Source of the DNA: Escherichia phage nieznany
Sequence record: NC_052659.1
Strand: one strand, 5' to 3'
DNA: 64,000 nt
The translations under genes and the position numbers were made by a program. This document shows, piece by piece, positions 2,523-55,482 of the stretch (position 1 is the stretch's first letter; each line of letters begins with the position of its first letter). A model generated the notes under the pieces. It made no database searches. It saw only the letters and a list, made by a program, of their open reading frames with translations, and was not told the DNA's origin.

Positions 2523-2996
2523 ATGTTTCAAGTAAATGTCAATGTGCATAATAGTTACTCTGATTGTGAGACGTGTGGCTATAATTCATCTAATGTTGTT
2601 CGTATTAGTGGCGATTTAGGAGAAGCTTCTTTTGGAGAAGAAGCAAGTTGCTTTAGTGGTATGGATGCAGAATGGAACGATATTGCACATTGGTTGGTGA
2701 GCAAACTAAAAGAAAAAGAGAAACCATTTCCTACTCTGCTTGATCGTTCTCTTGTAGAAGATGCAGGTAAAGCATATGCAGACTATGCGTATGCAGACGG
2801 GAAATATTTGGAAGATGATAAGGCTAACCATTTGCTTTATGTTTACTATGAAGCTGAATCTGCCTACGATAATTATTATAGCATGTCTAACATCCTACGT
2901 CTGTTTGCAGAGTTTGATATTTATTTCGAAGTAGAATTTTCAGAAGATGATACTTACGAATATGATTCTTATGATCCATTTGAGGAGGACGAATAA
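2523..2996 (+). CDS. acidic hypothetical protein
   Basis: 157-aa ORF after TAGGAGGG RBS; D/E/Y-rich C-terminus. Confidence 0.45.
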   Translation: MFQVNVNVHNSYSDCETCGYNSSNVVRISGDLGEASFGEEASCFSGMDAEWNDIAHWLVSKLKEKEKPFPTLLDRSLVEDAGKAYADYAYADGKYLEDDKANHLLYVYYEAESAYDNYYSMSNILRLFAEFDIYFEVEFSEDDTYEYDSYDPFEEDE

Positions 2997-3796
2997 TGCC
3001 AAGACGTGTATATTTTATTAGTGGTGCGGGACTAAGTGCTGACAGCGGAATCCAAACATTTCGCACAGAAACAGATTCTGGAAAGGCATTATGGGATGAA
3101 TACGATTTAACAGAAGTCTGTGACATTTTCAACTTCCGTGACGGTTATCAGCAAGAACAGGGTATTCCTGATGCTATGGGTGGCTTAGATGTGGAAGGAT
3201 ATAACCTCTACCGTAAAACTCACGACTTCTACAATAAACGTCGCGTGGAATTAGAGAAAGTTGACCCGAATCCAGCACATCTTCAGATTGGAGAATGGTT
3301 CGAAAAATACGGTGCAGAAAGGATTATTAACATTACTACTAACGTTGACGATCTATTAGAACGCGCTGGAATCGATAGAGAAGAAATATTGCACGTTCAT
3401 GGTTTCTTGCCAGAAGTTGTTGTTGATAACAAAATTATCAAAGATGTGGGTTACGCAGCTATTGATGTAGACGATTACAAATATGTGAAGCCTAATGTGG
3501 TGTTTTTTGGTGAGAATGCACCACTCTACACAGACATGTATCACAAACTGGATCAACTAACATCACAAGATATGGTTATCGTTGTAGGCTGCTCTAACCA
3601 AGTAATCAACTTCAACTGGGAACTCTTCCCTGCCCTGAATATTGGGGTTAAGATGGTTGTAGTTAACCCAGGTTTGAATTTTGTAGAACAAACTCTCTAC
3701 GAAGAACGTGGAGTGCTTGTCTACCGAGAGAAAGCAGGAACAGTCTTCAGTGATGAAGGCTTTATCAAAATGGTTGAAGACCATTTAAACAAATAA
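2996..3796 (+). CDS. Sir2-family (sirtuin-like) NAD-dependent protein
   Basis: FISGAGLSADSGIQTFR matches sirtuin GAGIS..GIP.FR NAD-binding motif; NITTNVDDLLERAG..HVHG matches sirtuin N.D.L..AG..LHG region. Confidence 0.65.
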   Translation: MPRRVYFISGAGLSADSGIQTFRTETDSGKALWDEYDLTEVCDIFNFRDGYQQEQGIPDAMGGLDVEGYNLYRKTHDFYNKRRVELEKVDPNPAHLQIGEWFEKYGAERIINITTNVDDLLERAGIDREEILHVHGFLPEVVVDNKIIKDVGYAAIDVDDYKYVKPNVVFFGENAPLYTDMYHKLDQLTSQDMVIVVGCSNQVINFNWELFPALNIGVKMVVVNPGLNFVEQTLYEERGVLVYREKAGTVFSDEGFIKMVEDHLNK

Positions 3797-7256: not shown

Positions 7257-7457
7257 TCTTCCTCCTGTTCGGTATTATTCACCTGTGAGACACAATGTAA
7301 CACAAGTTTTGTGAGTTTGTCAAGGATCTAATTACATTCTACAGAAGAAGAGGGTTAATAACTATAGGAATAGTCTTACTATAGGTGCAATACTAGTTAA
7401 GAGTTAGATTGATAGGTAAGACTTATCTTAAACAGATAATTGATAGGTGAGTCACCA

Positions 7458-7520
7458 TTGACTTTTTCAAAAAAGTATGGTACCCTAAACATATGTTTAC
7501 GAGCGATAGCGAGTAGTAGA
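7458..7520 (+). repeat. about 60-bp repeated element (copy 1) with promoter-like TTGACT-N17-TACCCT and conserved CGAGCGATAGCGAGTA box
   Basis: Near-identical to 34420-34480. Confidence 0.45.
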
Positions 7521-7616
7521 TTTCTATATAATAATGTTTCATGTTACTCACGATAGTGAGGTATGAAACGTAAGTGAAGGTAGATAAACTATGATCATCT
7601 ATCTACCATCTATTAA

Positions 7617-7826
7617 TCAATATAGATCTAATGTTAGACTAACAGTTATCCAACAAACAATAGCAGTCCATATAACAAGTAATGATCTACAAACTACATC
7701 CCATTCGAATACATTGTATGTTAACCATTCTCCCATCACAACACAAGAACCTAACCAACATCCGACAATAACTATAATCCAATAAAAGAATCCTACAGTA
7801 GAGTATACAGCAAAAGCTTTTAACAT
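7617..7826 (-). CDS. small membrane protein
   Basis: 69 aa, hydrophobic segments; ATG overlaps upstream reading frame. Confidence 0.4.
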   Translation of the reverse strand: MLKAFAVYSTVGFFYWIIVIVGCWLGSCVVMGEWLTYNVFEWDVVCRSLLVIWTAIVCWITVSLTLDLY

Positions 7827-8239
7827 CTTTCCTCCAGAAGTTGTTCAACAGTTTGACGAGTATGATTGTCCCAGTAAACCTTAGTGAAGTCAAGAGTTCC
7901 TTGTTCGTTTCTCTTAGTTTCGAAGAAGTATCCGCCTTCTCTTTCTACTCTGTCTCTAATGTGCTCTATGAGGTGCTTTTTACAAGATGCTGATAAACAA
8001 TAGTCATACTCCCCACGAAGTAACGCTATAGCTGCAAGTCTGTTATCACCAACTTAAGATATTGTCCAAGAAAGCATACTACCTTCTATACCTAAAGGTG
8101 TTTGTCGAATGGAATATCCACCATGCCGACTGATAGAAATTATGGCAAGTGGTTCTCCTGTTAGAGATCTTCCTAATGCACCTTCTGTTGGACTTCCTTC
8201 AACAATACGTTTGAAAAAAGCTTTGATCTTACCTAACAT
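7820..8239 (-). pseudogene. reading frame interrupted by in-frame TAA (61 codons + TAA + 76 codons); pseudogene or readthrough candidate
   Basis: ORF 8054..8239 and a start-less 76-codon ORF (stop 7820-7822) are in the same frame separated only by TAA at 8054-8056. Confidence 0.35.
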
Positions 8240-26394: not shown

Positions 26395-26937
26395 TCACAA
26401 ATATCGTCTTTGCGGTATTTTGTCTGGGAAAAGTATTTCGATCAGTTTATTATGATATTTGCCTAAAAGATTCTGCCCTTTCCAGGTAGCAGGGTTTAGC
26501 ACCCCTGGTTCATACATTCCCATTCCAATACCGTAAACCTTATCGTAAGGACTTGCTTCAACAAACGTTTTGTATTGGTAAAGGTGTAAGTCTGCATACA
26601 AATCTGGATTCTGTACATATTTCAAGCATAAGCCTCGCATAACAATACGCTCACGGTTCTCTTCCCACATATCATTATTAAAACCAGATACCGCTCGACC
26701 CATACGTTTGTAGTATGCTTGTTTCCTCTCGTTGTCACGTATAGTTGAGTGATCAAGGATAGCTGCTGCAATCGCATGATCCTTGAACAGCAAAGCCTTA
26801 CGCCACATCATATATTGCTCAACACAACAGAAAGTCTCATTGTAACCTGGTTCAGTTTCTGTAAAGGGTGCAATATACCAATTACTAAACACATCTTTAT
26901 GTGAAAAGAAGAATACATATTCATCAGTTATTCTCAT
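26395..26937 (-). CDS. NADAR-domain (YbiA/DUF1768-like) protein
   Basis: N-terminal FFFSHKDVFSNWY..F and EQYMMWRKALLF match NADAR conserved blocks. Confidence 0.6.
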   Translation of the reverse strand: MRITDEYVFFFSHKDVFSNWYIAPFTETEPGYNETFCCVEQYMMWRKALLFKDHAIAAAILDHSTIRDNERKQAYYKRMGRAVSGFNNDMWEENRERIVMRGLCLKYVQNPDLYADLHLYQYKTFVEASPYDKVYGIGMGMYEPGVLNPATWKGQNLLGKYHNKLIEILFPDKIPQRRYL

Positions 26938-41716: not shown

Positions 41717-42589
41717 ATGAAAGATTTGTACCAAGATGTTTTTTCTTTTTTAGATCGCACTTCAGAAACATACACTAGAGAGAATGCAAACAAACCTTCC
41801 CACCTCGTTAACACGCATAGGGATCTCTTGGCGGGGATTTTAAGCAAACATATGGCAATGACACAGATACTGCCAAAAAACTTGTCAGAATGGCATACAG
41901 AAGGTTTTGGACATATTCACGACTTGGATTATCTGCTCTCTCCTCTTACAAACTGTTGTCTTGTTAATTATCAAGATATGTTAGAGAATGGTTTTAAGAT
42001 CGGTGCTGCACAGATAGAAAAACCAAAATCTATTGGAGTAGCTACTACCGTGCTAACTCAAATCATCCAAGCTGTTGCCTCCAGTCAGTATGGAGGTCAG
42101 ACGTGTGCGCACATTGATAAAGGTCTTAGTCCTTATGTTGAAGCTAGTTTCCTTAAAAACATGGAGATAACCAAACGTCGCTACGGTTGTTATGCAAGGA
42201 AAGAAGCCCTAGAAATGACCGAACAAGATGTATATGACGCTATGCAAACTCTTTTGTATCAGGTTAACACTTTAATGAGTGTTAATGGACAATCTCCTTT
42301 TATTACAATCAGTATGGGTCTGGATACCTCTGTTTTTGGCAGAATGATCACAGCTAACTATCTTAAAGTGCATAGTAACGGTCTAGGTAAAGATCATGTA
42401 ACGCCTGTATTCCCTAAAGTTATTTTCTTTTTACAAGAAGGTGTTAACATGAAACCTAGTGATCCTAACTACGACCTTAAGCAACAAGCTTTGGCATGTT
42501 GTGCTGATCGTATTTATCCAGATTTTATTTCTGTTCCTTTGAACAAAGAAGTTACGGGGTCAGCAGATGGCACTGTTACGAGTATGGGT
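41717..42589 (+). CDS. nrdD: anaerobic ribonucleoside-triphosphate reductase NrdD, exon 1
   Basis: N-terminal half of class III RNR; frame ends in stop shortly after proposed 5' splice site (..TSMG). Confidence 0.65.
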
Positions 42590-43360
42590 AAACTATAACT
42601 GCTCATGTAAAATCTGCCTAAACGGGGGAACTCTCAACAGAGACAATCCCGTGCTAAACGTAACAGAACTCCCAACACAGAAGAAGGGGGGTACTGATAT
42701 GAGAAAACAAATTCGTGATTTTGAAGGGTATGAAATTGACGAGCTTGGAAATGTTTATTGTACCAGGTATAAGGATGAAAGAATCCTTCGCTCGTGGGAA
42801 GAAATAAACACAGGATACCAACTTGTCAGAATACGTAAAAACAAGAAAACTGTTTGCTTTCGGGTGCACAGACTTGTAGCTGAAGCGTTTTTACCCAATC
42901 CAGACAATTTACCTTATGTGAAGCATAAAGGTGACAATAGGAAAGACAACAGTGTATACAATCTTGAGTGGGGATCTTGTCCAGACAACACGCAAGAGGG
43001 TTACGATAATAACTGTTATGCTTTCTACACAAGGTGTCACAGTGTAAAAGCTACTCATAAGGCTACTGGTGAAGTTTTTTACTTTAAAAGTCTGAGATGT
43101 TGTGCTGACGCTTTAGGGTTGGACAGAAAAAGAATATCTGCAATCTTAAAGCAAGGAGCACCAAATAATTATGATTATGAGTTCTGTTACGAAATGCCTA
43201 ACGACTAGCTGTGATGAATGTAGCAGCGTAGGGTGTAAGCCTATGACACCCCAAATGGTAGACATGCTTTAAGCATGAAGATATAGTCTGATCTGCATGG
43301 TGACATGCAGCAGCACGTAATGGTGCGGGAGTGGCCTTGCGAGCCACTTTGAACATAATG
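42590..43360 (+). mobile_element. group I intron (putative) interrupting nrdD, carrying HNH homing endonuclease ORF
   Basis: Exon 1 ends with T; intron ends with G before TGT(Cys); splicing restores frame giving ..TSMG-CRSFLSYY.. and about 604-aa NrdD. Confidence 0.5.
42699..43208 (+). CDS. HNH homing endonuclease (intron-encoded)
   Basis: GYEIDELGNVY ... VHRLVAEAF ... KHKGDNRKDNSVYNLEW HNH family pattern; own RBS. Confidence 0.6.
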   Translation: MRKQIRDFEGYEIDELGNVYCTRYKDERILRSWEEINTGYQLVRIRKNKKTVCFRVHRLVAEAFLPNPDNLPYVKHKGDNRKDNSVYNLEWGSCPDNTQEGYDNNCYAFYTRCHSVKATHKATGEVFYFKSLRCCADALGLDRKRISAILKQGAPNNYDYEFCYEMPND

Positions 43361-44302
43361 TGTAGAAGTTTCTTGTCATACTATGCAACAGAGCAAGGAG
43401 AAAAATATGATGGACGATTCAACCTTGGAGTAGTTTCTATCAACTTGCCTCTGATTGCTGCGGAAGCGAGAAGTAAAGGAGAATCTTTCACCGATCTTCT
43501 TAATAAACATATGGAGATAGCCTACGATGCTCACATGCTACGTGTAAACCGTATCAGACATACCAAAGCATCTGAAAACCCTATTCTTTTCATGGAAGGG
43601 GCTTTAGCGCGTTTAAATGCCAACGATGAAATTGGTGCTTTGTTTGAAGGTGGTTATGCTTCTATTAGTATTGGTTATGTAGGTCTTGCCGAAGCTTTGG
43701 AAATCCTTTATCCAGAGGAAAAAGATAAAAAGGAACTAGGTAAAAACATTCTGCAACATATGAAAGATGTGTGTGCTGTGTTTAAAGAACGATCTAAGTT
43801 GGCATTTAGTCTTTATGGAACTCCAGCAGAATCCTTGTGCTATAAATTTGCAACAGCTTTAAATGAAAAATATCCAGGTCTGGTAGAAAGAGACTATCTT
43901 ACTAATTCTTTTCATCAACCTGTATGGTTGGTAACAAATCCTTTTGAAAAATGGGATTATGAAGCAGGTTTTGCACAGATTAGCAATGGTGGTAACATAA
44001 GTTATGTCGAAACACCAAACTTAAAGAATAACTTAGAAGCTTTGGAGACTTTAGTAGACTACGCTTATGAACATATTCACTATTTTGGTATTAATCAGCC
44101 CGTGGATCAATGCTTTAAGTGTGGTTTTCATGGAGAATTTAAGGCAACGGCTAAAGGGTTTGAGTGTCCTAATTGTGGCAACCATGAAGAAGAAACTATT
44201 TCTGTAGTTAGACGTGTATCAGGGTATCTTTCTGCCCCTAATTCACGGCCTTATAACAAAGGTAAAATGCAGGAAGTTTTGCAAAGGGAGAAACATCTTT
44301 GA
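43361..44302 (+). CDS. nrdD: anaerobic ribonucleoside-triphosphate reductase NrdD, exon 2
   Basis: C-terminal Zn ribbon CFKCG..CPNCG and glycyl-radical motif RRVSGYL. Confidence 0.65.
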   Translation, partial: CRSFLSYYATEQGEKYDGRFNLGVVSINLPLIAAEARSKGESFTDLLNKHMEIAYDAHMLRVNRIRHTKASENPILFMEGALARLNANDEIGALFEGGYASISIGYVGLAEALEILYPEEKDKKELGKNILQHMKDVCAVFKERSKLAFSLYGTPAESLCYKFATALNEKYPGLVERDYLTNSFHQPVWLVTNPFEKWDYEAGFAQISNGGNISYVETPNLKNNLEALETLVDYAYEHIHYFGINQPVDQCFKCGFHGEFKATAKGFECPNCGNHEEETISVVRRVSGYLSAPNSRPYNKGKMQEVLQREKHL

Positions 44303-44989: not shown

Positions 44990-45595
44990 ATGCAACATAG
45001 TGTAGTAGTCAACATGCCGAATAGTGGGGATAAATCTTTTGGTGTTCCTGCTAAAAAAGTATGGAAAGCCCATTTTCATCTTACTTTATCTAACGTTAGT
45101 TCTGAAGAGTTGATGAAAGCAGCTAAGATTATTGGTGCCAAATGCACAACAATTGATTTACATCGGGATACAAAGTCTCAACGTGATCGTATGTTAACAA
45201 AGTATCAAAGCGATCTCGACACTACTTTAATGTTGCAGTGTGTAGAAAAACTTGAGAATGCAGGTTTCAATGTTGTTCGTTACAAACTGGAACGAATGTT
45301 TAAACATGTTGCCTGTGTTCTTTTCATGGATCTAAGTAAAGAAAATTATGGAGAAGTTCACATTAAGACTTCAGCAAGTGATCCCGAAGTAGAAACAAAC
45401 TTCTTCCGTATTTCTTCTAATGCTGAAGAAATTGATTACCGATTTTATAATGCTCGCTTATATTCCGCAGAAGATAAGTTGCGTTTCAATGAAGCGTATG
45501 ATATGCTCTTGAACAGTGGGATACAGATAAAAGGCTACCACATAGAACAAGTTGTGGTAGATAGTAACTTAAATCTTGATGCGTGGTGGGCCTAG
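44990..45595 (+). CDS. hypothetical protein
   Basis: 201-aa ORF after GAGGAGA RBS. Confidence 0.45.
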   Translation: MQHSVVVNMPNSGDKSFGVPAKKVWKAHFHLTLSNVSSEELMKAAKIIGAKCTTIDLHRDTKSQRDRMLTKYQSDLDTTLMLQCVEKLENAGFNVVRYKLERMFKHVACVLFMDLSKENYGEVHIKTSASDPEVETNFFRISSNAEEIDYRFYNARLYSAEDKLRFNEAYDMLLNSGIQIKGYHIEQVVVDSNLNLDAWWA

Positions 45596-45596
45596 T

Positions 45597-46253
45597 ATGA
45601 CAATAAAACATATCTCTTTTGATGTATGGAATACTCTTATTTCTGCCAATCAAAACTATGCAGATGCACGTACGCACACTATTGCTACATATGGTAGAAT
45701 GTCTGAACGTGCGGCAAAAGAAGCGTATAAAGATGCCAAAGAAATTATGGATAATGCTGCACTAAATGGGTGTGCAGAAGGTGTAGCATATGCATGGAAT
45801 ATGTTGGGAAGAAAGATAGGTTTAACCCCTGTAGAATCTGCACAAATGCGTTTTGAATGTGAGCAATGGTTTCTTAAATTTCCTCCACATATCGCTTTAG
45901 ATTTGCCAGTTTGTTTGCTATACTTGTCTGGTAAATATGATCTTAGTATTAAAAGCAATACTAATTTTATATCTGGGGATATTTTGCGTCGTGCTTGTAT
46001 GTTCGACAGTTGGAATTGTTTTGAATTTATGCATTTTTCAGACGAACATCTGTTATGTAAACCAGATCCTAGATTCTTTGTTAGGACCGCCACATATTCA
46101 AGCATTCCTTTGAAGGCTGAAGAGATTTTACATGTTGGGGACAGCGAAGAATTTGATGGTAAATGTGTTGACATAGGGATTAACTTCTGTCATATTAAGA
46201 ACCCTAACGACTTACTAGAGAAACTTAAAAGAGGAGAAATTGTAAATGCGTAA
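45597..46253 (+). CDS. HAD-superfamily hydrolase-like protein (non-canonical motif I)
   Basis: ISFDVWNTL in place of DxDGT, and C-terminal HVGDSEEFD (GDxxxD). Confidence 0.4.
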   Translation: MTIKHISFDVWNTLISANQNYADARTHTIATYGRMSERAAKEAYKDAKEIMDNAALNGCAEGVAYAWNMLGRKIGLTPVESAQMRFECEQWFLKFPPHIALDLPVCLLYLSGKYDLSIKSNTNFISGDILRRACMFDSWNCFEFMHFSDEHLLCKPDPRFFVRTATYSSIPLKAEEILHVGDSEEFDGKCVDIGINFCHIKNPNDLLEKLKRGEIVNA

Positions 46254-47073
46254 TCAAACTCAAATTTTTGCAAATAAATTTGATGACCTGGAAACTGCTA
46301 CTTTTGATATCAAAGATTATTCAAAATTGAAATTTGGTAGTAACCAAGCTGCGCGTCGTATGGGTAAAGAATTGGCACTTCAGTTTTTTGCTCAAGTGGC
46401 AATGAAACATATTGGGGAACAATTTGTTATCATTCCTTCTCCTTATAACCATGTGCATAATGCTGCAACAATGATGACAGATCATTTTATTAATTACTTT
46501 AATATGTTGCAAGCACAATATGATCAAGGTTGTTCAGCAGAACTGGATATTATTCATCGTAAAGTTAGCTATATCAACGATTATGGTTTCTTGGATAAAG
46601 CTAGTCGTAAGAAACTTATTGATGGGGATACATTCTACTGCAACAAAGAATTCTGGGGTGATAAGAAGCTTGTGTTCATTGATGATGTAAATATCACTGG
46701 AACTCATGAAGACAAACTGATTGAGATTCTTGATGAAAATCAAGTTAAAAATGATGTTTACTTCTTGTATTTTGCAAAATATGAAGGTAATCAAGCAGAT
46801 ACTGAAGCTAAACTGAATTTTAACTACATCAATACACCAGAAGCGTTTGTTAAAATGATTAATGAAGAACGTGATGCACAGTGTCTTGTTCGTCCTATTA
46901 AGTATCTTATGGGCCAAAATCACGAAGACTTCAAAATCATTCTTAGCCAATTGCCACACTACTATGTAGAGCAACTTTTCTTCGGATGTTTGGGAGAAGG
47001 TTACAACCGAATTTCAAAGTATGCTGAAAACTTTGAATTCTTGGATCGTTACACAAAACAACACATTCTGTAA
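46246..47073 (+). CDS. phosphoribosyltransferase (type I PRTase)-like protein
   Basis: KLVFIDDVNITGT matches PRTase PRPP-binding motif. Confidence 0.5.
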   Translation: MRNQTQIFANKFDDLETATFDIKDYSKLKFGSNQAARRMGKELALQFFAQVAMKHIGEQFVIIPSPYNHVHNAATMMTDHFINYFNMLQAQYDQGCSAELDIIHRKVSYINDYGFLDKASRKKLIDGDTFYCNKEFWGDKKLVFIDDVNITGTHEDKLIEILDENQVKNDVYFLYFAKYEGNQADTEAKLNFNYINTPEAFVKMINEERDAQCLVRPIKYLMGQNHEDFKIILSQLPHYYVEQLFFGCLGEGYNRISKYAENFEFLDRYTKQHIL

Positions 47074-47086
47074 TAAGGAGCTAAAA

Positions 47087-47560
47087 ATGCTTAAAATGAA
47101 AACAGGTAATCTTATTGATGCCGCTAAAGCAGGTGAAGTAACTGTTATTGCTCATTGTTGCAATTGTATGTGTAATATGGGGGCAGGAATTGCTCCGCAA
47201 ATTAAACGAGCATTCCCTTATGCATATGCGGCAGATTTAGACACAACGGCTGGTGATCAAAGTAAGTTAGGTTCTTTTAGTTTAGGGGTGCCAGACGAAC
47301 AATCAGACCCTTTGGTATATAATCTATACGGGCAATACCGTTACGGATACAATGCTAAAGGTCGTCAGTTGGACTATGATGCACTTTACGATGCACTAAT
47401 AGCTATGGCTAATGATTTGCTTCTCCGTGACCAAAAATGTAAGATCGGCTTACCTATGATTGGCGCTGGATATGCTGGAGGTAATTGGGCTATCATCCAA
47501 GTGATGATTGAAGAAACTTTAGTAAAAACAGGTCACGATGTGACTATTTATAAACTTTAA
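47087..47560 (+). CDS. macro-domain (ADP-ribose binding/processing) protein
   Basis: HCCNCMCNMGAGIA resembles macro-domain N..N..GgGv.A motif; start at ATG 47087 after AAGGAG. Confidence 0.55.
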   Translation: MLKMKTGNLIDAAKAGEVTVIAHCCNCMCNMGAGIAPQIKRAFPYAYAADLDTTAGDQSKLGSFSLGVPDEQSDPLVYNLYGQYRYGYNAKGRQLDYDALYDALIAMANDLLLRDQKCKIGLPMIGAGYAGGNWAIIQVMIEETLVKTGHDVTIYKL

Positions 47561-47572
47561 GAGGAGATTAGT

Positions 47573-47794
47573 ATGGGTGTTTTTGCAGGTATTGTTGCAG
47601 TGGTAAGCTTTTTTGTTATTGCTTTTATGCTTAGTTTGATTCCAGCTTGGTTACTGTTGCTGGCTTACAACTATGTTGCTGAAGTTATGGGTCATGCAGA
47701 TATCACTGTCCCAGTAACCTTCTGGACCGTGGTTTGTGTTTCGTTTATTCTGGCAGTATTACGAGGAATCTTTTCCTCTCATTCAACAAAATAA
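47573..47794 (+). CDS. small membrane protein
   Basis: 73 aa, two hydrophobic helices. Confidence 0.45.
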   Translation: MGVFAGIVAVVSFFVIAFMLSLIPAWLLLLAYNYVAEVMGHADITVPVTFWTVVCVSFILAVLRGIFSSHSTK

Positions 47795-47797
47795 GTG

Positions 47798-47856
47798 TTG
47801 ACATAGTTCTTAAAAAGAGTAAGATATATCACATGAAGCGGGGAATAGTTCCCCGC
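47798..47856 (+). promoter_or_regulatory. promoter (TTGACA..TAAGAT) plus leader stem-loop GCGGGGAATAGTTCCCCGC upstream of TerC gene
   Basis: Same stem-loop family as the leftward early array, here on plus strand; hairpin 47838-47856. Confidence 0.5.
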
Positions 47857-47873: not shown

Positions 47874-48848
47874 ATGCAACTCGGTTTCCCAGTTATTGAT
47901 GTAGTTGTTTTAGTTGGTATTTTGGCATTGTCTATTGGTATCGATTTCTTTGGTCATAAAGAGAATAAAGAAATTGGAATTAAATCTGCTTTGCTTTGGT
48001 CTGTTTTTTGGATTGCTTTAGCTTTAGGATATTACGCATTCATTTGGGTAGAACATGGTAAAGAGTTTGCCGCGCTTTTCCTAAGTGGCTATGTGTTGGA
48101 AAAGAGTCTTTCTGTAGATAACCTGATGGTGTTCATGGCAATTTTTGCAAGCTTTGGAATTAAGAGCACACATCTCCAACATAAGATTTTACTTTGGGGG
48201 ATTGCAGGAGCCATTGTCTTCCGAGGTATTTTTGTTGCAGCAGGGACCGCTTTGTTTAACCTTCATTGGTCGGTCCAAGTGTTGTTCGGTTTGATTGTAG
48301 CTTGGTCTGCCGTGGCTATCATCAAAGGTGGTGACGAAGAAGAGGATATTGATTACTCTAAGCATTGGGCTGTTCGTTTAGTAGGTAAAGTTCTGCCTGT
48401 GCACAATGCACTAGATGGTGAAAAGTTCATTACCATTAAGAATGGTATTAAATATGCAACTCCTGCTCTTCTTTGTGTGTTTGTTATTGAGCTTACAGAT
48501 ATTGTCTTCTCTTTTGATTCAGTTCCGGCTGTGATCGGTGTGACACAAGAACCTCTGCTAGTTTATTCTGCAATGCTGATGGCTGTTCTTGGTTTACGTG
48601 CACTTTTCTTTGTGTTAAGTGTAGCTGTGAAATATCTGGTTCACTTAGAGAAAGCTGTTGCTGTGGTTCTGGTGTTTGTTGGTGCTAAACTTATGTATCA
48701 CCCGTTCGGTGAAACACTTCATGCCAAGTGGTCATTCCTCCCGCATGATATTTCCCCTAACGTAAGTCTGATGATTGTTCTAGGCACATTATCTCTTGGT
48801 GTTATTGCAAGCTTTATCTTCCCTGAAAAAGAAGAAGCTACTGTTTAA
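47874..48848 (+). CDS. TerC-family integral membrane protein
   Basis: 324 aa, multiple TM helices, conserved acidic residues in helices typical of TerC. Confidence 0.55.
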   Translation: MQLGFPVIDVVVLVGILALSIGIDFFGHKENKEIGIKSALLWSVFWIALALGYYAFIWVEHGKEFAALFLSGYVLEKSLSVDNLMVFMAIFASFGIKSTHLQHKILLWGIAGAIVFRGIFVAAGTALFNLHWSVQVLFGLIVAWSAVAIIKGGDEEEDIDYSKHWAVRLVGKVLPVHNALDGEKFITIKNGIKYATPALLCVFVIELTDIVFSFDSVPAVIGVTQEPLLVYSAMLMAVLGLRALFFVLSVAVKYLVHLEKAVAVVLVFVGAKLMYHPFGETLHAKWSFLPHDISPNVSLMIVLGTLSLGVIASFIFPEKEEATV

Positions 48849-48853
48849 TAAAT

Positions 48854-48880
48854 GAGCCTCCTTCGGGAGGCTATTTTATA
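48854..48880 (+). terminator. rho-independent terminator
   Basis: AGCCTCCTTCGGGAGGCT hairpin followed by ATTTTAT. Confidence 0.5.
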
Positions 48881-48890
48881 GGAGAGACTT

Positions 48891-49241
48891 ATGAGTAATT
48901 TTGATGAAATTCAAGAACTTGTTTGGGATTTATCTGGTGATGTGGATTACGTTTTAGATTATCTTTCAAAAGTTTACCCTGGGGTAAGCGTTATGATCGT
49001 GACCAAAGATCCAATTAATTTGCCTCCTAATGTGGTAGCTTGTTGTGGGAGTGGTTCAGGGGAAGTGGAGCCTGTATCCCGTTGGGAATTAACTAAAGCT
49101 GTTTCAAAACGAAACGGTGAAGTTTTGAATATTGATATCGAGCAAATATGGACTTCTCCAGCAGCTAAATGGAATGATCCGAATGGTTGGGACTTGTTCT
49201 TCTGGGATAATGAAACTGATGATGAGGTATTTTTAAAATGA
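48891..49241 (+). CDS. hypothetical protein
   Basis: 116-aa ORF. Confidence 0.45.
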   Translation: MSNFDEIQELVWDLSGDVDYVLDYLSKVYPGVSVMIVTKDPINLPPNVVACCGSGSGEVEPVSRWELTKAVSKRNGEVLNIDIEQIWTSPAAKWNDPNGWDLFFWDNETDDEVFLK

Positions 49242-49424
49242 AATACTTGTTGGTTGTGTTTGAAAATATTTGTTTTGCAATAGGGTTGTTTGTTGTAATT
49301 TTTGTATTGACAAGCGTAATCAACGGCAGTAAAGTGAGTTTATACCGAGATGGAGAGCAACTTTATTGCTTCTCTGGAGATTTCAAACACAGATGTATTA
49401 ATAGCCAAAACGAGGAAAGCAAAT

Positions 49425-49862
49425 ATGAAAAAACTAGCCCTGATTTTAATTGGTTGTATCTTTTTAACAGCTTGCGAGGATGAGACAAATCCTGCACAAT
49501 ACCAACAACCTCCTCAACAATACGCTCAACAAGGATCTGACGGAGATACAACTATTATCAACAATGGTGGCGGTTCTAGTAGTAGCGGTGTTGGTGAGTT
49601 TGCTACAGGTATGTTGTTAGGGCATATGATGAGTGGCGGTAGTAATCGTAGCAGTGGGGATTATAACGATAACAGAACGATTATTAATAAGCATTATAAT
49701 ACACCTAAACCGAAAACTAATTTTTATGGTAAGCCTAAACAAGAGATAAAAACTTATGAAAAGCCGAGACAAACTTTTAAAACAAATAGTAGCTATACAA
49801 CTCGTAAATCTTACAATAGCCCTTTAAGTAAAAAGAGTTCATCTCGTAGCAAGCGACGTTAA
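49425..49862 (+). CDS. lipoprotein (Gly/Ser/Asn-rich)
   Basis: MKKLALILIGCIFLTAC signal peptide with lipobox; start moved to ATG 49425. Confidence 0.5.
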   Translation: MKKLALILIGCIFLTACEDETNPAQYQQPPQQYAQQGSDGDTTIINNGGGSSSSGVGEFATGMLLGHMMSGGSNRSSGDYNDNRTIINKHYNTPKPKTNFYGKPKQEIKTYEKPRQTFKTNSSYTTRKSYNSPLSKKSSSRSKRR

Positions 49863-49876
49863 TAAGGAGAAAAACA

Positions 49877-50470
49877 ATGACAATTTCTATTCGTACTTCC
49901 ATTACAGGTGTTAAAAGTTTGCCTAATGCTTTGCAAATCACACGTGCTTTGAGGGATACGTTCTCTGCTGTGGATGAGCATAAGATGCTCGATAATCTCT
50001 CAAATTGGCCCTATTTTCATTATTTTAAAAATGAAGACGACGAGTTTATAGACGCTGTTTCTTACGGTTATGATTTCGGTAAGGAGGTTTCTCCTGAAGA
50101 ATTTGTAGTTATGGTGTTCCCAAACGGTTTGCCTACTCGCAGTAAACGTAAAAAAGGACCAAAAAACAAGAAACGTGCTACTAATAAAGCTACCATTTTC
50201 TTTACTGATGGCACACAATATACGATTAAAGATTTTGAAGAGGTATCTTATACAGCAGGTGGGAATCTTTCTTTCTACACCATCAAAAAACAAAACTCTA
50301 CGTTCAGCCATGTTTCTAACATGATTGAAATGTTAGTAGAAGATATTGAAAGCGTAGCTGTGTTAGGTATGCATAAAAGCTTTTTAATTACAAATATTTC
50401 AGATTTCAGTGCACGTTTATCTGGTCCTGATTTTGAAACCACGACCACGCATTTCACTTTTAAGGTGTAA
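49877..50470 (+). CDS. hypothetical protein
   Basis: 197-aa ORF, TAAGGAGA RBS. Confidence 0.45.
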   Translation: MTISIRTSITGVKSLPNALQITRALRDTFSAVDEHKMLDNLSNWPYFHYFKNEDDEFIDAVSYGYDFGKEVSPEEFVVMVFPNGLPTRSKRKKGPKNKKRATNKATIFFTDGTQYTIKDFEEVSYTAGGNLSFYTIKKQNSTFSHVSNMIEMLVEDIESVAVLGMHKSFLITNISDFSARLSGPDFETTTTHFTFKV

Positions 50471-50473
50471 GTT

Positions 50474-51064
50474 ATGTATACCGAGAGAGACTTGCAACTC
50501 TTGTGGTGGGAAGTGATGCAGGAAATAAAAGAAGATTTTCCTGTTTACTACAACATGTTACGTGAAGCAGGATATAAAGCTTGTGTTAGAAACAAAGTGA
50601 ATAACTCTTTCGGTTGGTGCAACTACCGAGATAAAATTGTTGTTGTAAATTGGCACTTGCATAAGAACTCTACAAGAGATATGATCGTGGATACAATGAA
50701 GCACGAAATTGCTCATGCTATTGATGGTTGTATGGGTAAGTTTAGTAGACACGGTGCTCATTGGCAAAAACTGGCAGCAGAGTTAGGGGCTAATCCTAAA
50801 GCCACTTCCAAAGAGCCGTTGAACCACGAATATAAATATGTTCTTGTTCTGGTAGATAGGTTTGCGACAAGATGTGTTAGAGGTTATAATCGTAAACCTA
50901 ATCGCATGTACCCAGGTAAGCAACCTAATATGTGGTTGAAATCAGATAAAGAAGGGACCGAAGGAAAATTATGGTTGTATAAATGGGACGATTGGGTTAA
51001 AGTAGCTAAAGAGTACGGTGTTTCACCATATATAAGAGATGCAGAAGAGGAGAATGAAGAATGA
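50474..51064 (+). CDS. SprT-like zinc metalloprotease domain protein
   Basis: MKHEIAHAI HExxH plus downstream HGAHWQ. Confidence 0.5.
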   Translation: MYTERDLQLLWWEVMQEIKEDFPVYYNMLREAGYKACVRNKVNNSFGWCNYRDKIVVVNWHLHKNSTRDMIVDTMKHEIAHAIDGCMGKFSRHGAHWQKLAAELGANPKATSKEPLNHEYKYVLVLVDRFATRCVRGYNRKPNRMYPGKQPNMWLKSDKEGTEGKLWLYKWDDWVKVAKEYGVSPYIRDAEEENEE

Positions 51065-52173
51065 CAAGTCCATTTTTAAAAGCAGCTACTGGCGGTCAGA
51101 AGAAGCCTGAAATGAGCGTATTTGCTGCAACAACAGATGCAAGTAAATCTGTATTCGCTCCAAGCGTGTTAGATGCCAGTCCTGTTTATGCACCAGCGGC
51201 ACCGCAAGAAGTTCCAGTTTTGCCTTCTATGACCCGACAAGAGATCGAAGAGATTGGGGCAGAGGCAGGAACAACCTTGCGTTCCTTGAATGCCGAGGTA
51301 TTAAAACATCAACGTAGTAATCAAGGCGATCAGATGAGTGAACGACTCACAGCTTTGATTAAACAGGCAAAACAACTTGATCCAAACTCTATTAAACAAA
51401 GCAAGGGTATTACTAAACTCATTAAAAAAGTTATGGGTATGAAAGAAGATCTGTTTGGGGAGTTTGATAATGTTAATAACCGTATTGAAGAGTTGGTAAA
51501 AAACCTTCAAATGGATATTCGCAAAGAAGAAGATTCCTTGGTATATCTTGAAAAGCTACATCAAGCTATTGGACAATATGCTGCAAGTTTGAACCGAGAT
51601 ATGCAGCTTCTAACAGCAACCTATGAAAAAGAAGAACAAGCTTTGGCTGCTCTTCCAGAAGATGCAGTAGAACAGCGACAAGTGATCCGAGATACTTTGG
51701 ATCTTCTGGAGATTCGTATTGCAGATTTAAAAGCATTGCGCCTACTGTGTGTCCAAATGGGACCGCGTGTACAAGGTATGCAAAAAGTTTCTGCAAGCTT
51801 AATGCGATCTGCGCGTAACATAGTAAATAATGTTATTCCTGCTTACTCTGCTAACTTCTCAATGTATATCGAGAGCTTACGTCAAATGAAAGCAGCAGAG
51901 ACGCAGAATAACGTTCTTGATGAATTTAACCTGGCAATTAAACTGGGTAGCGATCTTGCCACACAGAATCAGATCGAAGCAGCAGCACTGGCTAACCGTC
52001 AAGTGTTGGATATTGAAACTCTGCGTCACGATCAGGAAAACTTGGTTAAGATGTTGGAAGAAACTAACCGCATCAATACGGAAGCCCGTGCTGCTCGTGT
52101 TGATTATATTAATGAAGTTCAATCTTTGGAAGACGGGATGGTAGCTGCTGTGAAACGAGGGCTTGGTAAATGA
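51061..52173 (+). CDS. coiled-coil protein, possibly TelA-like (unverified)
   Basis: 370 aa, size and helical character compatible with TelA family; no motif-level proof. Confidence 0.4.
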   Translation: MTSPFLKAATGGQKKPEMSVFAATTDASKSVFAPSVLDASPVYAPAAPQEVPVLPSMTRQEIEEIGAEAGTTLRSLNAEVLKHQRSNQGDQMSERLTALIKQAKQLDPNSIKQSKGITKLIKKVMGMKEDLFGEFDNVNNRIEELVKNLQMDIRKEEDSLVYLEKLHQAIGQYAASLNRDMQLLTATYEKEEQALAALPEDAVEQRQVIRDTLDLLEIRIADLKALRLLCVQMGPRVQGMQKVSASLMRSARNIVNNVIPAYSANFSMYIESLRQMKAAETQNNVLDEFNLAIKLGSDLATQNQIEAAALANRQVLDIETLRHDQENLVKMLEETNRINTEARAARVDYINEVQSLEDGMVAAVKRGLGK

Positions 52174-52370
52174 GAATCCGTATCTATATAATTGATGAGG
52201 ACATTGGTGTCCGTTATGATGACGAAAAACGATTCGCGCCGATGGGAGGCATATATCCCCCAAGTGTTCTAGCAGTTTGTCGTGATTGTTATATTTATGA
52301 AGGTTGTCGTAACTTCCGTAAATTCGAACTCCTTGCAGATATTGACTTCAATGAGGAGGAGGAGGAGTAA
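52170..52370 (+). CDS. small acidic protein
   Basis: 66-aa ORF, Cys pairs and poly-E tail. Confidence 0.4.
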   Translation: MRIRIYIIDEDIGVRYDDEKRFAPMGGIYPPSVLAVCRDCYIYEGCRNFRKFELLADIDFNEEEEE

Positions 52371-52543
52371 TGAAAATATTACGAGTGAATATTGAAACTG
52401 CTTGGTGTGGATGCAATGAGGTTGTGGATATCGAAATTGAAGATGATATGTCTCAAGAGGATATAGAAGATCTTGCACACGAAACCTTTCAGGACTATTG
52501 TAATTACGGGTTCCATATTTTAGAGGAGGAAGAGGATGTTTAA
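52370..52543 (+). CDS. micro-protein (57 aa, acidic)
   Basis: ATG overlapping upstream stop; CGC pair. Confidence 0.35.
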   Translation: MKILRVNIETAWCGCNEVVDIEIEDDMSQEDIEDLAHETFQDYCNYGFHILEEEEDV

Positions 52544-52739
52544 CTACGATAACGACCCTAATATTATCCAGTTAACCCGACAAGAACTGATCACAATCAT
52601 TGAAGATGCTTTTATTGATGGCTGGAATACACAAGACAATGATTGGGGTGGACCCGAAGCTTTTCTGGAACATCATAAAGCTTATGGAGAATTTTGTGAA
52701 ACCACTGTAGCTCTTGATAATCTGAAGGAGGGTTTGTAA
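52536..52739 (+). CDS. hypothetical protein
   Basis: 67-aa ORF. Confidence 0.4.
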   Translation: MFNYDNDPNIIQLTRQELITIIEDAFIDGWNTQDNDWGGPEAFLEHHKAYGEFCETTVALDNLKEGL

Positions 52740-53302
52740 TGGGTTGTTTTAGCTTTTTGTGCAAAGAATCGGGCAAAGCTGCCCTTTCTACTTCTTTCGA
52801 CGGATCACCTTGTTATCTCTTTCTTTTGAAGGACGGTGTTGTTATTGAAGAGATGTATGGCAACTATGATAGTTATGGTTGTGTTTTCTCTGGAAAGGAG
52901 GATGAAAATGGCGTTCGTGAACGGTTCGAATGGGCTATGGATTGGGGTAAGGTTTGTGATTTAATGCATTCCTCGAATCCAAGGGATGGTATCGCTATGG
53001 TGCTGGAAGAGTATTTTACAGGTGAAATCCCTACAGAACAATCTGACGGAGATCCTAACCAAGGTTGGGGTGATGGCGAAGAAGATCCAGATTGTTTTTT
53101 CAGCACAGAAAAGAATAAGTTTAAACGTGTTGACAACCCTTATCACAAAGTGCATAATACTCTCATTGAAACAGAAGATGACAAGATGGAAATTGAAGAA
53201 GATGATCCTCTTGTAACACTTCCTATAAGTGAGTTACAAAAGATCACTAAGGAAGCTTACGATTTGGGCTTCAAAATTGGTAGAGGAGGTATGCGTGTTT
53301 AG
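52739..53302 (+). CDS. hypothetical protein
   Basis: 187-aa ORF. Confidence 0.45.
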   Translation: MGCFSFLCKESGKAALSTSFDGSPCYLFLLKDGVVIEEMYGNYDSYGCVFSGKEDENGVRERFEWAMDWGKVCDLMHSSNPRDGIAMVLEEYFTGEIPTEQSDGDPNQGWGDGEEDPDCFFSTEKNKFKRVDNPYHKVHNTLIETEDDKMEIEEDDPLVTLPISELQKITKEAYDLGFKIGRGGMRV

Positions 53303-53573
53303 ATTCAATATTCAAGAAGAAAAAAGTCAGGATTTACCTATTGCTTTCGAAGATCTTGACGTAGGGGCCACATTCATGTATTATGATGCCTATGAAGACG
53401 CAGGGTTGGATACCTACCGTAACTTGGTGTTCATTAAAAATTCCACAAACAGTGCGATTTGTATTAATGGATCACTAGCACAACGAGGCTATACTCATTG
53501 CATCCCACCAGATACAAATATGGTGGAAGTAGATTTAGAAGTTACCAATATTACACTTAAGAAGGAGAAATAA
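53295..53573 (+). CDS. small protein, paralog A (flanks vWA gene)
   Basis: GTG start; shares ..DLDVG.TF.Y..A..E.GLD.. and EV.L.VT.ITLK with ORF 54595..54864. Confidence 0.45.
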   Translation: MFRFNIQEEKSQDLPIAFEDLDVGATFMYYDAYEDAGLDTYRNLVFIKNSTNSAICINGSLAQRGYTHCIPPDTNMVEVDLEVTNITLKKEK

Positions 53574-53574
53574 T

Positions 53575-54369
53575 ATGTCCGAGAAAATCAGCCTGAAAAA
53601 ACGTCAAGAAAACCTTGCTTTCTCTCTGAAAAAGAATAAGAACCTGAATGAAGGTAAGATTGTTCTTCGTGTAGCATGTGCTCTAGATATTTCTGGTAGT
53701 ATGCATGGTCTATATTCTAGTGGGGTAGTGAGTGATTTTGTAGGTAAACTGCTTCCTTTTGGTATGCTGTTCGACGATAATCAACAAATTGATATGTGGG
53801 CCTTCAATACGAGTTCCCAAGAGCTTACTCCAGCAACAGCAGACGTTTACGATGACTATGTTGGTAAATGTATGCGTAATGTTCGTATCGGAGGTGGAAC
53901 AAATTACGCCCCTGTAATGGCAGATATCTACGATGAGTATTTTGGCACTGTTACCAAATATATTACCACTAAACAAGTGGTACAAGAGGAGGCTCCAAAG
54001 AAAGGCTTCTTTAATCGTCTGCTTGGTAAAACTGAAACAGTGTCTGTAGAGCGTGAAAAAGTTGTAGCTGTATCTGAACCAGGTGCTGACGTTACCCCTG
54101 GTGTTGTATTCTTCCAGACGGATGGTGAGAATGGTGATCCTAGTGCTGTTCGTCGTCTTATTGAAGAGAATAAGAATAAACCTATTTATTGGTTCATGGT
54201 TGGCGTTGGTAATGAGAAGTTTGGCTTCCTGAAAGAACTGGCAAATGCTTATGATAATGTTGGTTTTATTGGCATTAAAGATTTAGACTTGACAGATTCA
54301 GAGCTTTATGACAAACTCTTATCTGAAGAGTTCGGAGAGTGGGTTGTTAAAGTAGGTGCTAAAAAATGA
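53575..54369 (+). CDS. von Willebrand factor A domain protein (TerY-like)
   Basis: MIDAS motif ALDISGSM; N-terminal EKISLKK shared with TerD gene. Confidence 0.55.
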   Translation: MSEKISLKKRQENLAFSLKKNKNLNEGKIVLRVACALDISGSMHGLYSSGVVSDFVGKLLPFGMLFDDNQQIDMWAFNTSSQELTPATADVYDDYVGKCMRNVRIGGGTNYAPVMADIYDEYFGTVTKYITTKQVVQEEAPKKGFFNRLLGKTETVSVEREKVVAVSEPGADVTPGVVFFQTDGENGDPSAVRRLIEENKNKPIYWFMVGVGNEKFGFLKELANAYDNVGFIGIKDLDLTDSELYDKLLSEEFGEWVVKVGAKK

Positions 54370-54614
54370 TCGACGAGCTTGCCTCTCAAGTCGTAGAAAA
54401 TTATTGGCGCGAGAGAGAAGCTTTCATTATGCGCAGTCTCAAAGAGTATTTCATTGGGACTGTGCGAATGGAAGATATTGTAAGTAGAGTAGAGATTCAT
54501 GTATGGCCCGATTATGAAGAATGGGTTGACAAAGAAAATGAAAATGCTATAATTCTTCGTATATACAAACCGGAGATAACATTAGGAGGAAGAAGTGTTA
54601 AACTTCGAAATTGA
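54366..54614 (+). CDS. hypothetical protein
   Basis: 82-aa ORF. Confidence 0.4.
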   Translation: MIDELASQVVENYWREREAFIMRSLKEYFIGTVRMEDIVSRVEIHVWPDYEEWVDKENENAIILRIYKPEITLGGRSVKLRN

Positions 54615-54864
54615 TGAGCAAAAAGTAAATAAACGATGCCTTACCATTAAAGATTTGGATGTAGGAGATACTTTCGTCTATGAAAATGCATTTGACGAAA
54701 ATGGTTTAGACCTTAGTGAAATCATTGTTTATTTAAAAGTAGATGATGGGGAAAATGATTATTCTGCTGTAGAACTAAACCATCATGCACAATTAGTATC
54801 AATCCAAAACACATCTAAGCTTTTGGAAGTAGAATTGACTGTAACTGGTATTACACTTAAATAA
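54595..54864 (+). CDS. small protein, paralog B
   Basis: GTG start; paralogous to 53295..53573. Confidence 0.45.
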   Translation: MLNFEIDEQKVNKRCLTIKDLDVGDTFVYENAFDENGLDLSEIIVYLKVDDGENDYSAVELNHHAQLVSIQNTSKLLEVELTVTGITLK

Positions 54865-54879
54865 TAGAGGAGACAAAAG

Positions 54880-55482
54880 ATGACTGATAAAATTTCCCTG
54901 AAAAAAGGCTCTAGCGAAAAAATTTCCCTGAAGAAAGTTGCTCCGGCTCTGAAAGAACTGCGCCTGGAATTCTCTTGGAAATCTGATTCTAAACTGGATC
55001 TGGATGTAAGTGCACTGGTTTGTCGTCACAATGCCGCTGGCAATCCTGAAATGCTGTCTGCACGTCATCTGGTTTGCTATGCTAACAAGTTTGATCCTGA
55101 ACGTTCTACCTTCGCTGGTGACGATGTTCGTGATGGGACTGGCAGCATGGAGCAGATTGATATTACTCTGGCTAAAATCTCTCCTGATGCACAAGAGATT
55201 GCCTTTGTTCTGACCATTGATGATGATACAGGTCTGAAACGTTTTGGTCATGCTTCTGAAGGTATGCTTAAAATCTTCGACTCCGAGCGTAATGTGGAAA
55301 TTCTGGATTTTGACTTCCTGGCTCCTGAAGTAGCTGGCAACACAATCTGCCACGTGGCTTCCCTGGTTCGTGAAGATGGAGAATGGAAGCTGAAAGCATA
55401 TGGTGTAGGTAAAGCTGGTCTGGATATTTGCGATGTGGTGATGGCCTTCGGTGGTAAAAAAGAATGGTATGAATGTCCATAA
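54880..55482 (+). CDS. TerD-domain protein
   Basis: KISLKK..LKELRLEFSWK..LDLDVSALV ... IAFVLTIDD pattern typical of TerD family; strongly CTG/CGT-biased codons. Confidence 0.7.
   Translation: MTDKISLKKGSSEKISLKKVAPALKELRLEFSWKSDSKLDLDVSALVCRHNAAGNPEMLSARHLVCYANKFDPERSTFAGDDVRDGTGSMEQIDITLAKISPDAQEIAFVLTIDDDTGLKRFGHASEGMLKIFDSERNVEILDFDFLAPEVAGNTICHVASLVREDGEWKLKAYGVGKAGLDICDVVMAFGGKKEWYECP

Follow-up and report, generated by a model that had tools for sequence, protein, structure and literature searches.

The gene at positions 47087..47560 (+ strand) of the window, that is, the whole 64,000-nucleotide stretch of DNA analysed here, encodes a stand-alone macrodomain protein, which is assigned by its sequence to the ALC1-like/TARG1-like class, SCO6735 (glutamine) subtype. 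Comparison with characterised relatives gives roughly an even chance, in our estimate, that the protein acts like AdfM and reverses DarT2's ADP-ribosylation of phage DNA. Its adjacency to Ter-like genes looks, from sequence comparison across phages, like inherited gene order with no common job.

The gene is an exact open reading frame of 157 codons plus stop, as the sequence-only reading had it, with its own ribosome-binding site (AAGGAG, 47076..47081, +, read from the sequence and annotated as an RBS in ESCO13) 5 nt 5' of the ATG. A longer in-frame ORF from 47021 overlaps the PRTase gene, and its start is unused in GenBank records. The 8 kb around the gene are 99% identical to the Phapecoctavirus genomes DIJ07P1, ESCO13 and phAPEC8_ev052 and match 75 phage records (66 of the 75 over at least 80% of the length). 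The window is part of a ~150-kb E. coli myovirus of the genus Phapecoctavirus (phAPEC8/ESCO13-like), subfamily Stephanstirmvirinae. In public records the coding sequence is labelled 'phosphatase', 'putative phosphatase' or 'macro domain-containing protein', and the gene belongs to a known, already annotated phage family. Rfam detected no structured RNA in the window, the split nrdD included.

The Pfam match of the protein to Macro (PF01661) is borderline, scoring 22.1 bits where the cut-off is 22. Despite this threshold-level score, the PDB, fold and PHROG evidence places the protein unambiguously in the macrodomain superfamily, whose three-layer alpha/beta/alpha fold holds ADP-ribose in a pocket made by the GxG loop and the glycine-rich phosphate loop. 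It matches phrog_335 at 9.5e-55, and a search of protein databases returned 262 homologues. With the single sequence as query, phmmer against the PDB retrieved SCO6735 of Streptomyces coelicolor (5e3b, 6e-13), BT1257 (2fg1, 1e-8), and TARG1 and Taq DarG (2e-6), while a profile of 43 family sequences retrieved BT1257 (1.5e-21), SCO6735 (1.9e-18) and TARG1 (1.7e-17). The AlphaFold2 model (pLDDT 93.8, pTM 0.90) gave TARG1 as the first Foldseek match in the PDB (E 7e-12, TM 0.79/0.88), followed by BT1257, the DarG proteins of Taq and Mtb, Poa1p and SCO6735; the top 50 matches are macrodomains, bar rank 34 (a designed serine hydrolase). The macro-domain identity proposed from the letters alone is therefore borne out by PDB, profile, AlphaFold2 and Foldseek results that agree with one another, and the subtype by HMM and structure is TARG1/ALC1-like.

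Four segments of the protein carry the predicted active-site residues. The motif I21-A-H23-C-C-N26-C (47147..47167, +) contains the family-invariant H23 and N26, which align with H24 and N27 of SCO6735; the Asn of this H-x-x-N motif positions the glutamine of the subtype. Loop 1, M31-G32-A33-G34 (47177..47188, +), is the macrodomain GxG ADP-ribose-binding loop, and its G32 and G34 are conserved in every protein compared. In the motif N79-L-Y-G-Q83 (47321..47335, +), profile alignment sets Q83 at the position of TARG1 K84, DarG K80 and SCO6735 Q85. The phosphate-binding loop 2, G121-L-P-M-I-G-A-G-Y-A130-G-G-N-W134 (47447..47488, +), carries A130, which aligns with the catalytic D125 of TARG1. 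Across 43 homologues, H23, N26, G34, Q83, G121, P123, G126, G132 and W134 are invariant, and the glycine loops G32-x-G34 and G126-x-G128-x-x-x-G132 are conserved. Because Q83 lies opposite K84 and A130 opposite D125, the Lys/Asp dyad of TARG1 is absent, as it is in SCO6735 and BT1257 (their 'NMIGQ' against 'NLYGQ' here). The protein is accordingly not TARG1 proper, although human TARG1/OARD1 is its top structural match.

SCO6735 and BT1257, the best solved relatives by sequence, have the glutamine subtype in common with the phage protein, but they are cellular proteins with only ~28% identity to it. In SCO6735, Q85 is the equivalent of K80 in Taq DarG; hydrolysis of thymidine-linked ADP-ribosylated DNA is lost with Q85A and almost lost with N27S, and the wild-type enzyme removes T-ADPr from DarT-modified DNA, rescues E. 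coli from DarT and acts on protein substrates too (PMC9411070). TARG1-like macrodomains are T-/U-ADPr hydrolases across kingdoms, and SCO6735, like TARG1 and DarG, reverses uracil ADP-ribosylation of RNA (PMC13036486). The substrates of SCO6735 are T-ADPr on DNA, U-ADPr on RNA and Glu-ADPr on protein. Since the N, Q and Gly-loop residues essential in SCO6735 are kept, the phage protein is predicted to be catalytically competent. Among the differences, V25 of SCO6735 is replaced by Cys24 and K34, a DNA-binding residue of SCO6735, by Ala33, the latter counting against an AdfM-like role.

The same residues bear on whether the protein could simply bind ADP-ribose without catalysis, or act as a sponge that sequesters, for instance, cyclic-ADPR immune signals. 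Some macrodomains bind their ligand only, and phage sponges against Thoeris exist. However, the residues that SCO6735 needs for catalysis (N, Q, Gly loops) do not vary within the family, and both family members that have been tested are enzymatic or dependent on catalytic residues, which makes a mere sponge very improbable.

The sequence-only reading had also raised the DarG type of macrodomain. In kind this holds: PDB, Foldseek and DarG-model matches group the protein with TARG1, DarG and SCO6735, all reversers of thymidine-linked DNA ADP-ribosylation. Both PADLOC (DarG, 1.6e-10) and NCBIfam gave DarG matches, but these cover the macro part only; of the 329/338 model positions only 1-147 are matched, and the NCBIfam score of 34.9 bits is far below the 250 bits set as the equivalog cut-off. 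The protein is not the DarG antitoxin of DarTG2, since at 157 aa it lacks the C-terminal DarT-binding domain, Gln83 replaces the catalytic Lys, and no darT is adjacent, the neighbours being a PRTase_3 gene and a 73-aa membrane ORF. It is, as judged from its sequence, DarG-like in chemistry, yet no DarG. PhiKZ AdfM (gp104), a lysine-type macrodomain of a chimallivirus, removes T-ADPr in vitro (PMC13309987). DarG and PhiKZ AdfM share with the phage protein the macrodomain class and the proposed removal of T-ADPr from ssDNA, but use a catalytic Lys (K80 in DarG, K78 in PhiKZ AdfM) where it has Gln. ICP1 AdfB contains no macrodomain and is irrelevant as a relative.

Two phage relatives within phrog_335 suggest what the protein may do. 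In a transposon screen, tk.4 was the single T4 gene needed on DarTG2 hosts and was named AdfM, a genetic result from a preprint (bioRxiv 10.1101/2025.11.20.689424). The phage protein and T4 Tk.4 are 37% identical over 124 aa (E 7e-22), share a stand-alone architecture (157 and 155 aa) and have the H-x-C-N-C, M-G-x-G, N-L-Y-x-Q and P-x-I-G-A-G motifs in common. They differ in the 'mobile' loop, which is shorter in T4, and in their neighbours (tk/vs/regB in T4, HAD/PRTase_3/TerC here), and the anti-DarTG2 phenotype was demonstrated in T4 only. The two phages resemble each other further as E. coli myoviruses that carry a NADAR (AdfN in T4) and a macrodomain (AdfM in T4) and have no NARP pathway. 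The NADAR-domain protein gene of the present phage lies at 26395..26937 (- strand; Pfam NADAR, 3.4e-35), and by tblastn its product shares 57% identity with the NADAR of the BASEL phage EmilieFrey, which is a Justusliebigvirus-type relative of the present phage. AdfN-Bas60, a NADAR reported from Bas60-62, was shown to neutralise DarT1 and to rescue phages on DarTG1 (PMC11825919). The NADAR of the present phage is a likely functional companion of the macrodomain protein.

The other relative is Adpp (KNV71_gp137) of Vibrio phage Gary, encoded between Adps and Namat, which converts ADPR-1''-phosphate to ADPR, so that NARP1 can restore NAD+ once a RES-domain NAD+ phosphorylase has attacked, according to a preprint in which the anti-aRES activity needed all three NARP1-AP genes and macro genes occurred in only 15% of 859 NARP1 operons (bioRxiv 10.64898/2026.01.28.702374). 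With 41% identity over its full length (161 columns, E 4e-36) and the same family and motifs, Adpp, not AdfM, is the closest characterised relative by sequence, a point against the AdfM-like role. In the main rival explanation, the protein may be an Adpp-like phosphatase that turns aRES-made ADPR-1''-P into ADPR, either as detoxification or to feed NAD+ recovery. Besides the identity to a biochemically tested enzyme, support comes from the 'phosphatase' label in public records, from family members located within Adps/Namat (NARP1-like) pairs, or next to them, in Thalassavirus, Pakpunavirus and Otagovirus, and from a NadV/Namat-like gene within 8 kb in 28 of 80 IMG/VR loci. However, a search at E<0.1 found no homologue of Adps, Namat, NadV or Prs either in the window or in anhysbys, a complete Phapecoctavirus genome, and none is annotated; the NARP1 and NARP2 genes, looked for across the whole phage genome, are absent, so the partners that flank Adpp and that the anti-aRES effect required are missing. 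NARP3 offers no link either, being a PnuC/NadR pair unrelated to the genes of the macro region. In loop 1, Adpp has Arg (MGRG) and the present protein Ala. The low share of NARP1 operons with a macro gene, together with the 2,981 phage records that hold the family, indicates that most members play a NARP1-independent role. We consider the Adpp-like function possible, though distinctly less probable than the AdfM-like one, which is favoured because the phage has no NARP1/NARP2 genes and carries a NADAR homologous to AdfN-Bas60. The enzyme may well act on both T-ADPr and ADPR-1''-P.

The family itself is widespread. By tblastn, relatives occur in 2,981 of 50,697 phage records (~6%), and carriers of phrog_335 include T4-like, KVP40-like, rV5-like, FelixO1-like, Pakpuna-/Otago-virus and T5-like Vibrio phages, in agreement with a published survey in which 41% of myoviruses encode macrodomains (PMC9503650). 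A neighbour-joining tree, which carries no support values, shows a star-like phage radiation as sister to SCO6735/BT1257, in which the clade of the window joins neither T4 Tk.4 nor Adpp, a further point against the AdfM-like role. The tree, the ranking of PDB matches of each protein and the comparison of motifs all fail to separate an AdfM branch from an Adpp branch, and the Arg, Ala or Ser in loop 1 does not track gene context among family members.

Other NAD+-consuming functions of the phage provide a further alternative, in which the macrodomain would do housekeeping by clearing O-acetyl-ADP-ribose (OAADPr) or ADP-ribosyl adducts of Sir2, or the ADPR-1''-P or Appr>p of RNA repair, an idea that Iyer et al. 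(2021 and 2022) put forward from comparative evidence. The phage has a gene for a SIR2 protein (2996-3796, Pfam 1.4e-20) and others for an RNA ligase, for a phosphoesterase and for a tRNA nucleotidyltransferase; KVP40-like phages have the macro gene 2-3 kb from SIR2, HAD_SAK_2 and Thg1, and Erwinia-type phages carry it close to an RNA ligase. However, the SIR2 gene is 44 kb distant in the window, no Tpt1/KptA gene was seen, and the phenotypes measured for the family concern counter-defence only, so that housekeeping appears rather unlikely.

Around the macro gene, the sequence-only reading had placed the PRTase/HAD genes on one side and TerC on the other within a Ter-like block, and this arrangement was recovered. 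Upstream lie a HAD hydrolase (45576-46253, +) and a ComF-like PRTase_3 (46246-47073, +), both identified with Pfam/PHROG. Downstream are a 73-aa predicted membrane protein (47573..47794, +, phrog_16065), TerC (47874-48848, +, Pfam TerC), an SprT-like gene between TerC and TelA, TelA (51061-52173), a vWA-TerF-like gene (53575-54369) and TerD (54880-55482). The HAD and PRTase_3 genes overlap by 8 nt, and gaps of 13 nt and 12 nt separate the macro gene from PRTase_3 and from the 73-aa ORF, respectively. The 79-nt gap before TerC contains a promoter-like site in the consensus scan (TTGACA-16-TAAGAT, 47798-47825, +), and a strong hairpin with a T-run follows TerC (48855-48872, +). These signals in the sequence suggest that TerC is a transcription unit apart from the macro gene, which would be transcribed with the upstream genes. 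Consensus sites for promoters and terminators were not enriched over shuffles, so the operon structure is a putative one.

This position had led to the suggestion that the macro domain processes an ADP-ribose-derived or ribosylated metabolite of the module. On this view it would be a component of the HAD-PRTase_3 (Ter 'biosynthetic') module, and the product it processes might be a Ter-system signal. The tight packing of the macro gene with HAD, PRTase_3 and the 73-aa ORF, with TerC set off behind its promoter-like site, speaks for such a module, and the 13-nt gap and probable co-transcription leave room for a common function, which counts against independence. In Stephanstirmvirinae-like loci the order (201-aa protein, HAD, PRTase_3, macro, 73-aa ORF, TerC ... 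TelA ... vWA ... TerD) is held in Phapecoctavirus, Justusliebigvirus and metagenomic relatives at ~49-65% macro identity, and the 73-aa ORF travels with the macro gene; persistence of the order at ~50-65% macro identity speaks for the module, as does a parallel order in Otagovirus-like phages (L027, PN09), where Prs-like, NAPRTase-like, macro, SLOG, TelA, vWA-TerF, TerC and TerD genes follow one another with a non-orthologous, NAMPT-type PRTase.

However, outside the subfamily the linkage dissociates both ways. The macro gene occurs without HAD/PRTase_3 within 8 kb in relatives of the L005/L017 and L022 types. Conversely, the 7-9 kb around the HAD-PRTase_3 pair contain no macro gene in three other lineages, represented by Xanthomonas phage XaC1, by Rhizobium phages and by Brevundimonas phage Marchewka, and TelA/Ter blocks lack it in PBECO4 and CcrBL9; the family HMM detected no macro-family ORF in those HAD-PRTase_3 and TelA loci, while positive controls were found. 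Phage records with PRTase_3 number 155 and those with the macro family 2,981, and ~95% of family members are in phages without any PRTase_3. Among the best 80 IMG/VR loci, which are not phylogenetically independent, PRTase_3+HAD accompanied the macro gene in only 5, against 28 with NadV/Namat-like genes (within 8 kb), 24 with Prs/Adps-like genes, 23 with SIR2 and 16 with NADAR, and most loci have neither PRTase_3/HAD nor Ter genes. The pocket of a macrodomain binds the ADP moiety, which a PRPP-derived nucleoside does not have. The components described for the Ter system are PRTases, HAD, TerB/D, TerC, TelA and TerF, with no macro listed (Iyer et al., PMC7824862). Since the dissociation runs both ways, processing of a Ter-module metabolite is unsupported and is rejected as the main explanation; membership in the module seems quite improbable. 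Equally improbable is a three-enzyme nucleotide/ADP-ribose pathway of HAD, PRTase_3 and macro, set by phages ahead of the Ter-like block, which could be a NARP-like variant of NAD+/ADPR salvage or a maker and eraser of a Ter signal; it is hinted at because the PRTase-macro-Ter order occurs twice with non-orthologous PRTases, the ComF-like PRTase_3 here and Adps/Namat-like genes in Otagovirus-type phages, and because macro-HAD pairing recurs in the NAD+ clusters of KVP40-like phages. From the distribution of its sequence relatives, we read the macro gene as belonging to a phage toolkit for NAD+/ADP-ribose conflict whose placement varies, and not to the Ter system.

The alternative raised from the sequence alone, an independent counter-defence factor, fits best, as the family is common to T4 Tk.4/AdfM (anti-DarTG2) and Gary Adpp (anti-aRES). 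For the present protein we infer the substrate and the anti-DarT2 role from these relatives. In the proposed mechanism, the macrodomain would bind ADP-ribose and cut the C1'' bond of the distal ribose, freeing ADP-ribose. As an early counter-defence, this would remove the ADP-ribose that host DarT2 attaches to thymidines of single-stranded phage DNA and would restore phage replication. The protein would be an AdfM-like mimic of an orphan antitoxin, partner of the phage NADAR (AdfN-like, anti-DarT1), and would probably be independent of the adjoining HAD/PRTase_3 and Ter genes.

The locus cautions that function is not readable from adjacency within a single phage subfamily. Two different roles are now claimed for a single macrodomain family, phrog_335, one directed against DarT2 and the other as an ADPR-1''-P phosphatase that serves NARP1, and the present gene, from a NARP1-less phage yet nearer to Adpp in sequence, provides a handy test of whether the family is bifunctional or diverged. 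If the AdfM-like role is true, the phAPEC8-like coliphages, which are therapeutic candidates, would be equipped with two enzymes that together counter both types of DarTG, with the NADAR for guanine-linked and the macrodomain for thymine-linked DNA ADP-ribosylation, and this would aid the prediction of host range on DarTG-bearing E. coli.

The proteins encoded by the Phapecoctavirus genomes were compared with those of relatives (loci L003 and L011 of other phages), and the three genes at window 45576-47560 were set against the Ter genes at 47874-55482. HAD (45576-46253), PRTase_3 (46246-47073) and the macrodomain protein (47087-47560), with identities of 50-52%, 63% and 52-65%, respectively, are much more diverged than TerC, TerD and TelA (88-89%, 85% and 74-75%). 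In these sequence comparisons, HAD, PRTase_3 and the macro protein show an arms-race-like mode of evolution, while the Ter proteins do not. The SprT-like metallopeptidase gene lies just 5' of TelA and overlaps its start (both genes within 50474-52173, + strand), and in a distant relative whose TelA is 48% identical (L022, 12735-15015) one additional ORF separates the two genes. The closeness of SprT-like gene and TelA is conserved within the phage Ter-like block.

As annotated in Justusliebigvirus, the macro gene product is extended by about 95 aa at its N-terminus (L015 7833-8567, phage Bas62), and in L011 a separate 184-aa ORF is found between PRTase_3 and the macro gene (7457-8011). Pfam gave no match for the Bas62 extension or for the L011 ORF; part of the extension is covered by the phrog_335 profile, the family of the window protein. 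Just 5' of HAD there is a 201-aa 'hypothetical' protein (44990-45595, + strand, phrog_22504), which is kept in relatives at 57-80% identity. PADLOC models of the AbiEi antitoxin cover it nearly end to end (4.7e-13), and no match was obtained in Pfam or NCBIfam. Alongside the macro gene, this may be a further counter-defence gene of an orphan-antitoxin-like type.

HAD and PRTase_3 also form a conserved two-gene unit in unrelated phage families, namely in XaC1 (L013), a Rhizobium phage (L014) and a Brevundimonas phage (L104), and no Ter genes were found near the pair in these three loci. In Rhizobium phages, an NMN adenylyltransferase/Nudix gene is located two genes from the pair, and in XaC1, genes for RNA ligase, tRNA nucleotidyltransferase and Nudix are nearby. 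In view of these non-Ter neighbourhoods, the function of the pair in phages may therefore not be related to Ter. Compact TelA/vWA-TerF/TerC/TerD blocks were detected in Otagovirus-like and Caulobacter jumbo phages (L027; Pseudomonas phage PN09, L096; Caulobacter phage CcrBL9, L103), in which NAD+ salvage or reconstitution genes, either Adps/Namat-like or NadM plus NAMPT, lie within 3-10 kb of the Ter block. These loci give a hint that Ter and NAD+ genes recurrently lie near each other in phage genomes.

Further upstream, nrdD (anaerobic ribonucleotide reductase) is divided into two ORFs (41717-44302, + strand). The 5' part (41717-42598) matches positions 1-263 of the NRDD profile and the 3' part (43331-44302) positions 263-562, with an HNH/I-HmuI-like endonuclease ORF (42567-43208, +) between them. 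In ESCO13 and anhysbys nrdD is unbroken (1,815 nt); the insert in the window is about 771 nt, and Rfam identified no group I intron at the split. The interruption may be caused by insertion of a free-standing homing endonuclease.

Elsewhere in the window, a NADAR-domain protein (26395-26937, - strand, Pfam 3.4e-35) shares 57% identity with the NADAR of BASEL phage EmilieFrey. AdfN-Bas60, the NADAR reported from Bas60-62, neutralises DarT1 (PMC11825919), and the window NADAR is probably the anti-DarTG1 factor of this phage. The phage also encodes a SIR2-family protein (2996-3796, + strand, Pfam 1.4e-20) and, elsewhere in its genome, a DprA/SLOG-like protein. Together, the SIR2, NADAR, macro and DprA/SLOG-like proteins are an NAD+/ADP-ribose toolkit without NAD+ salvage genes.
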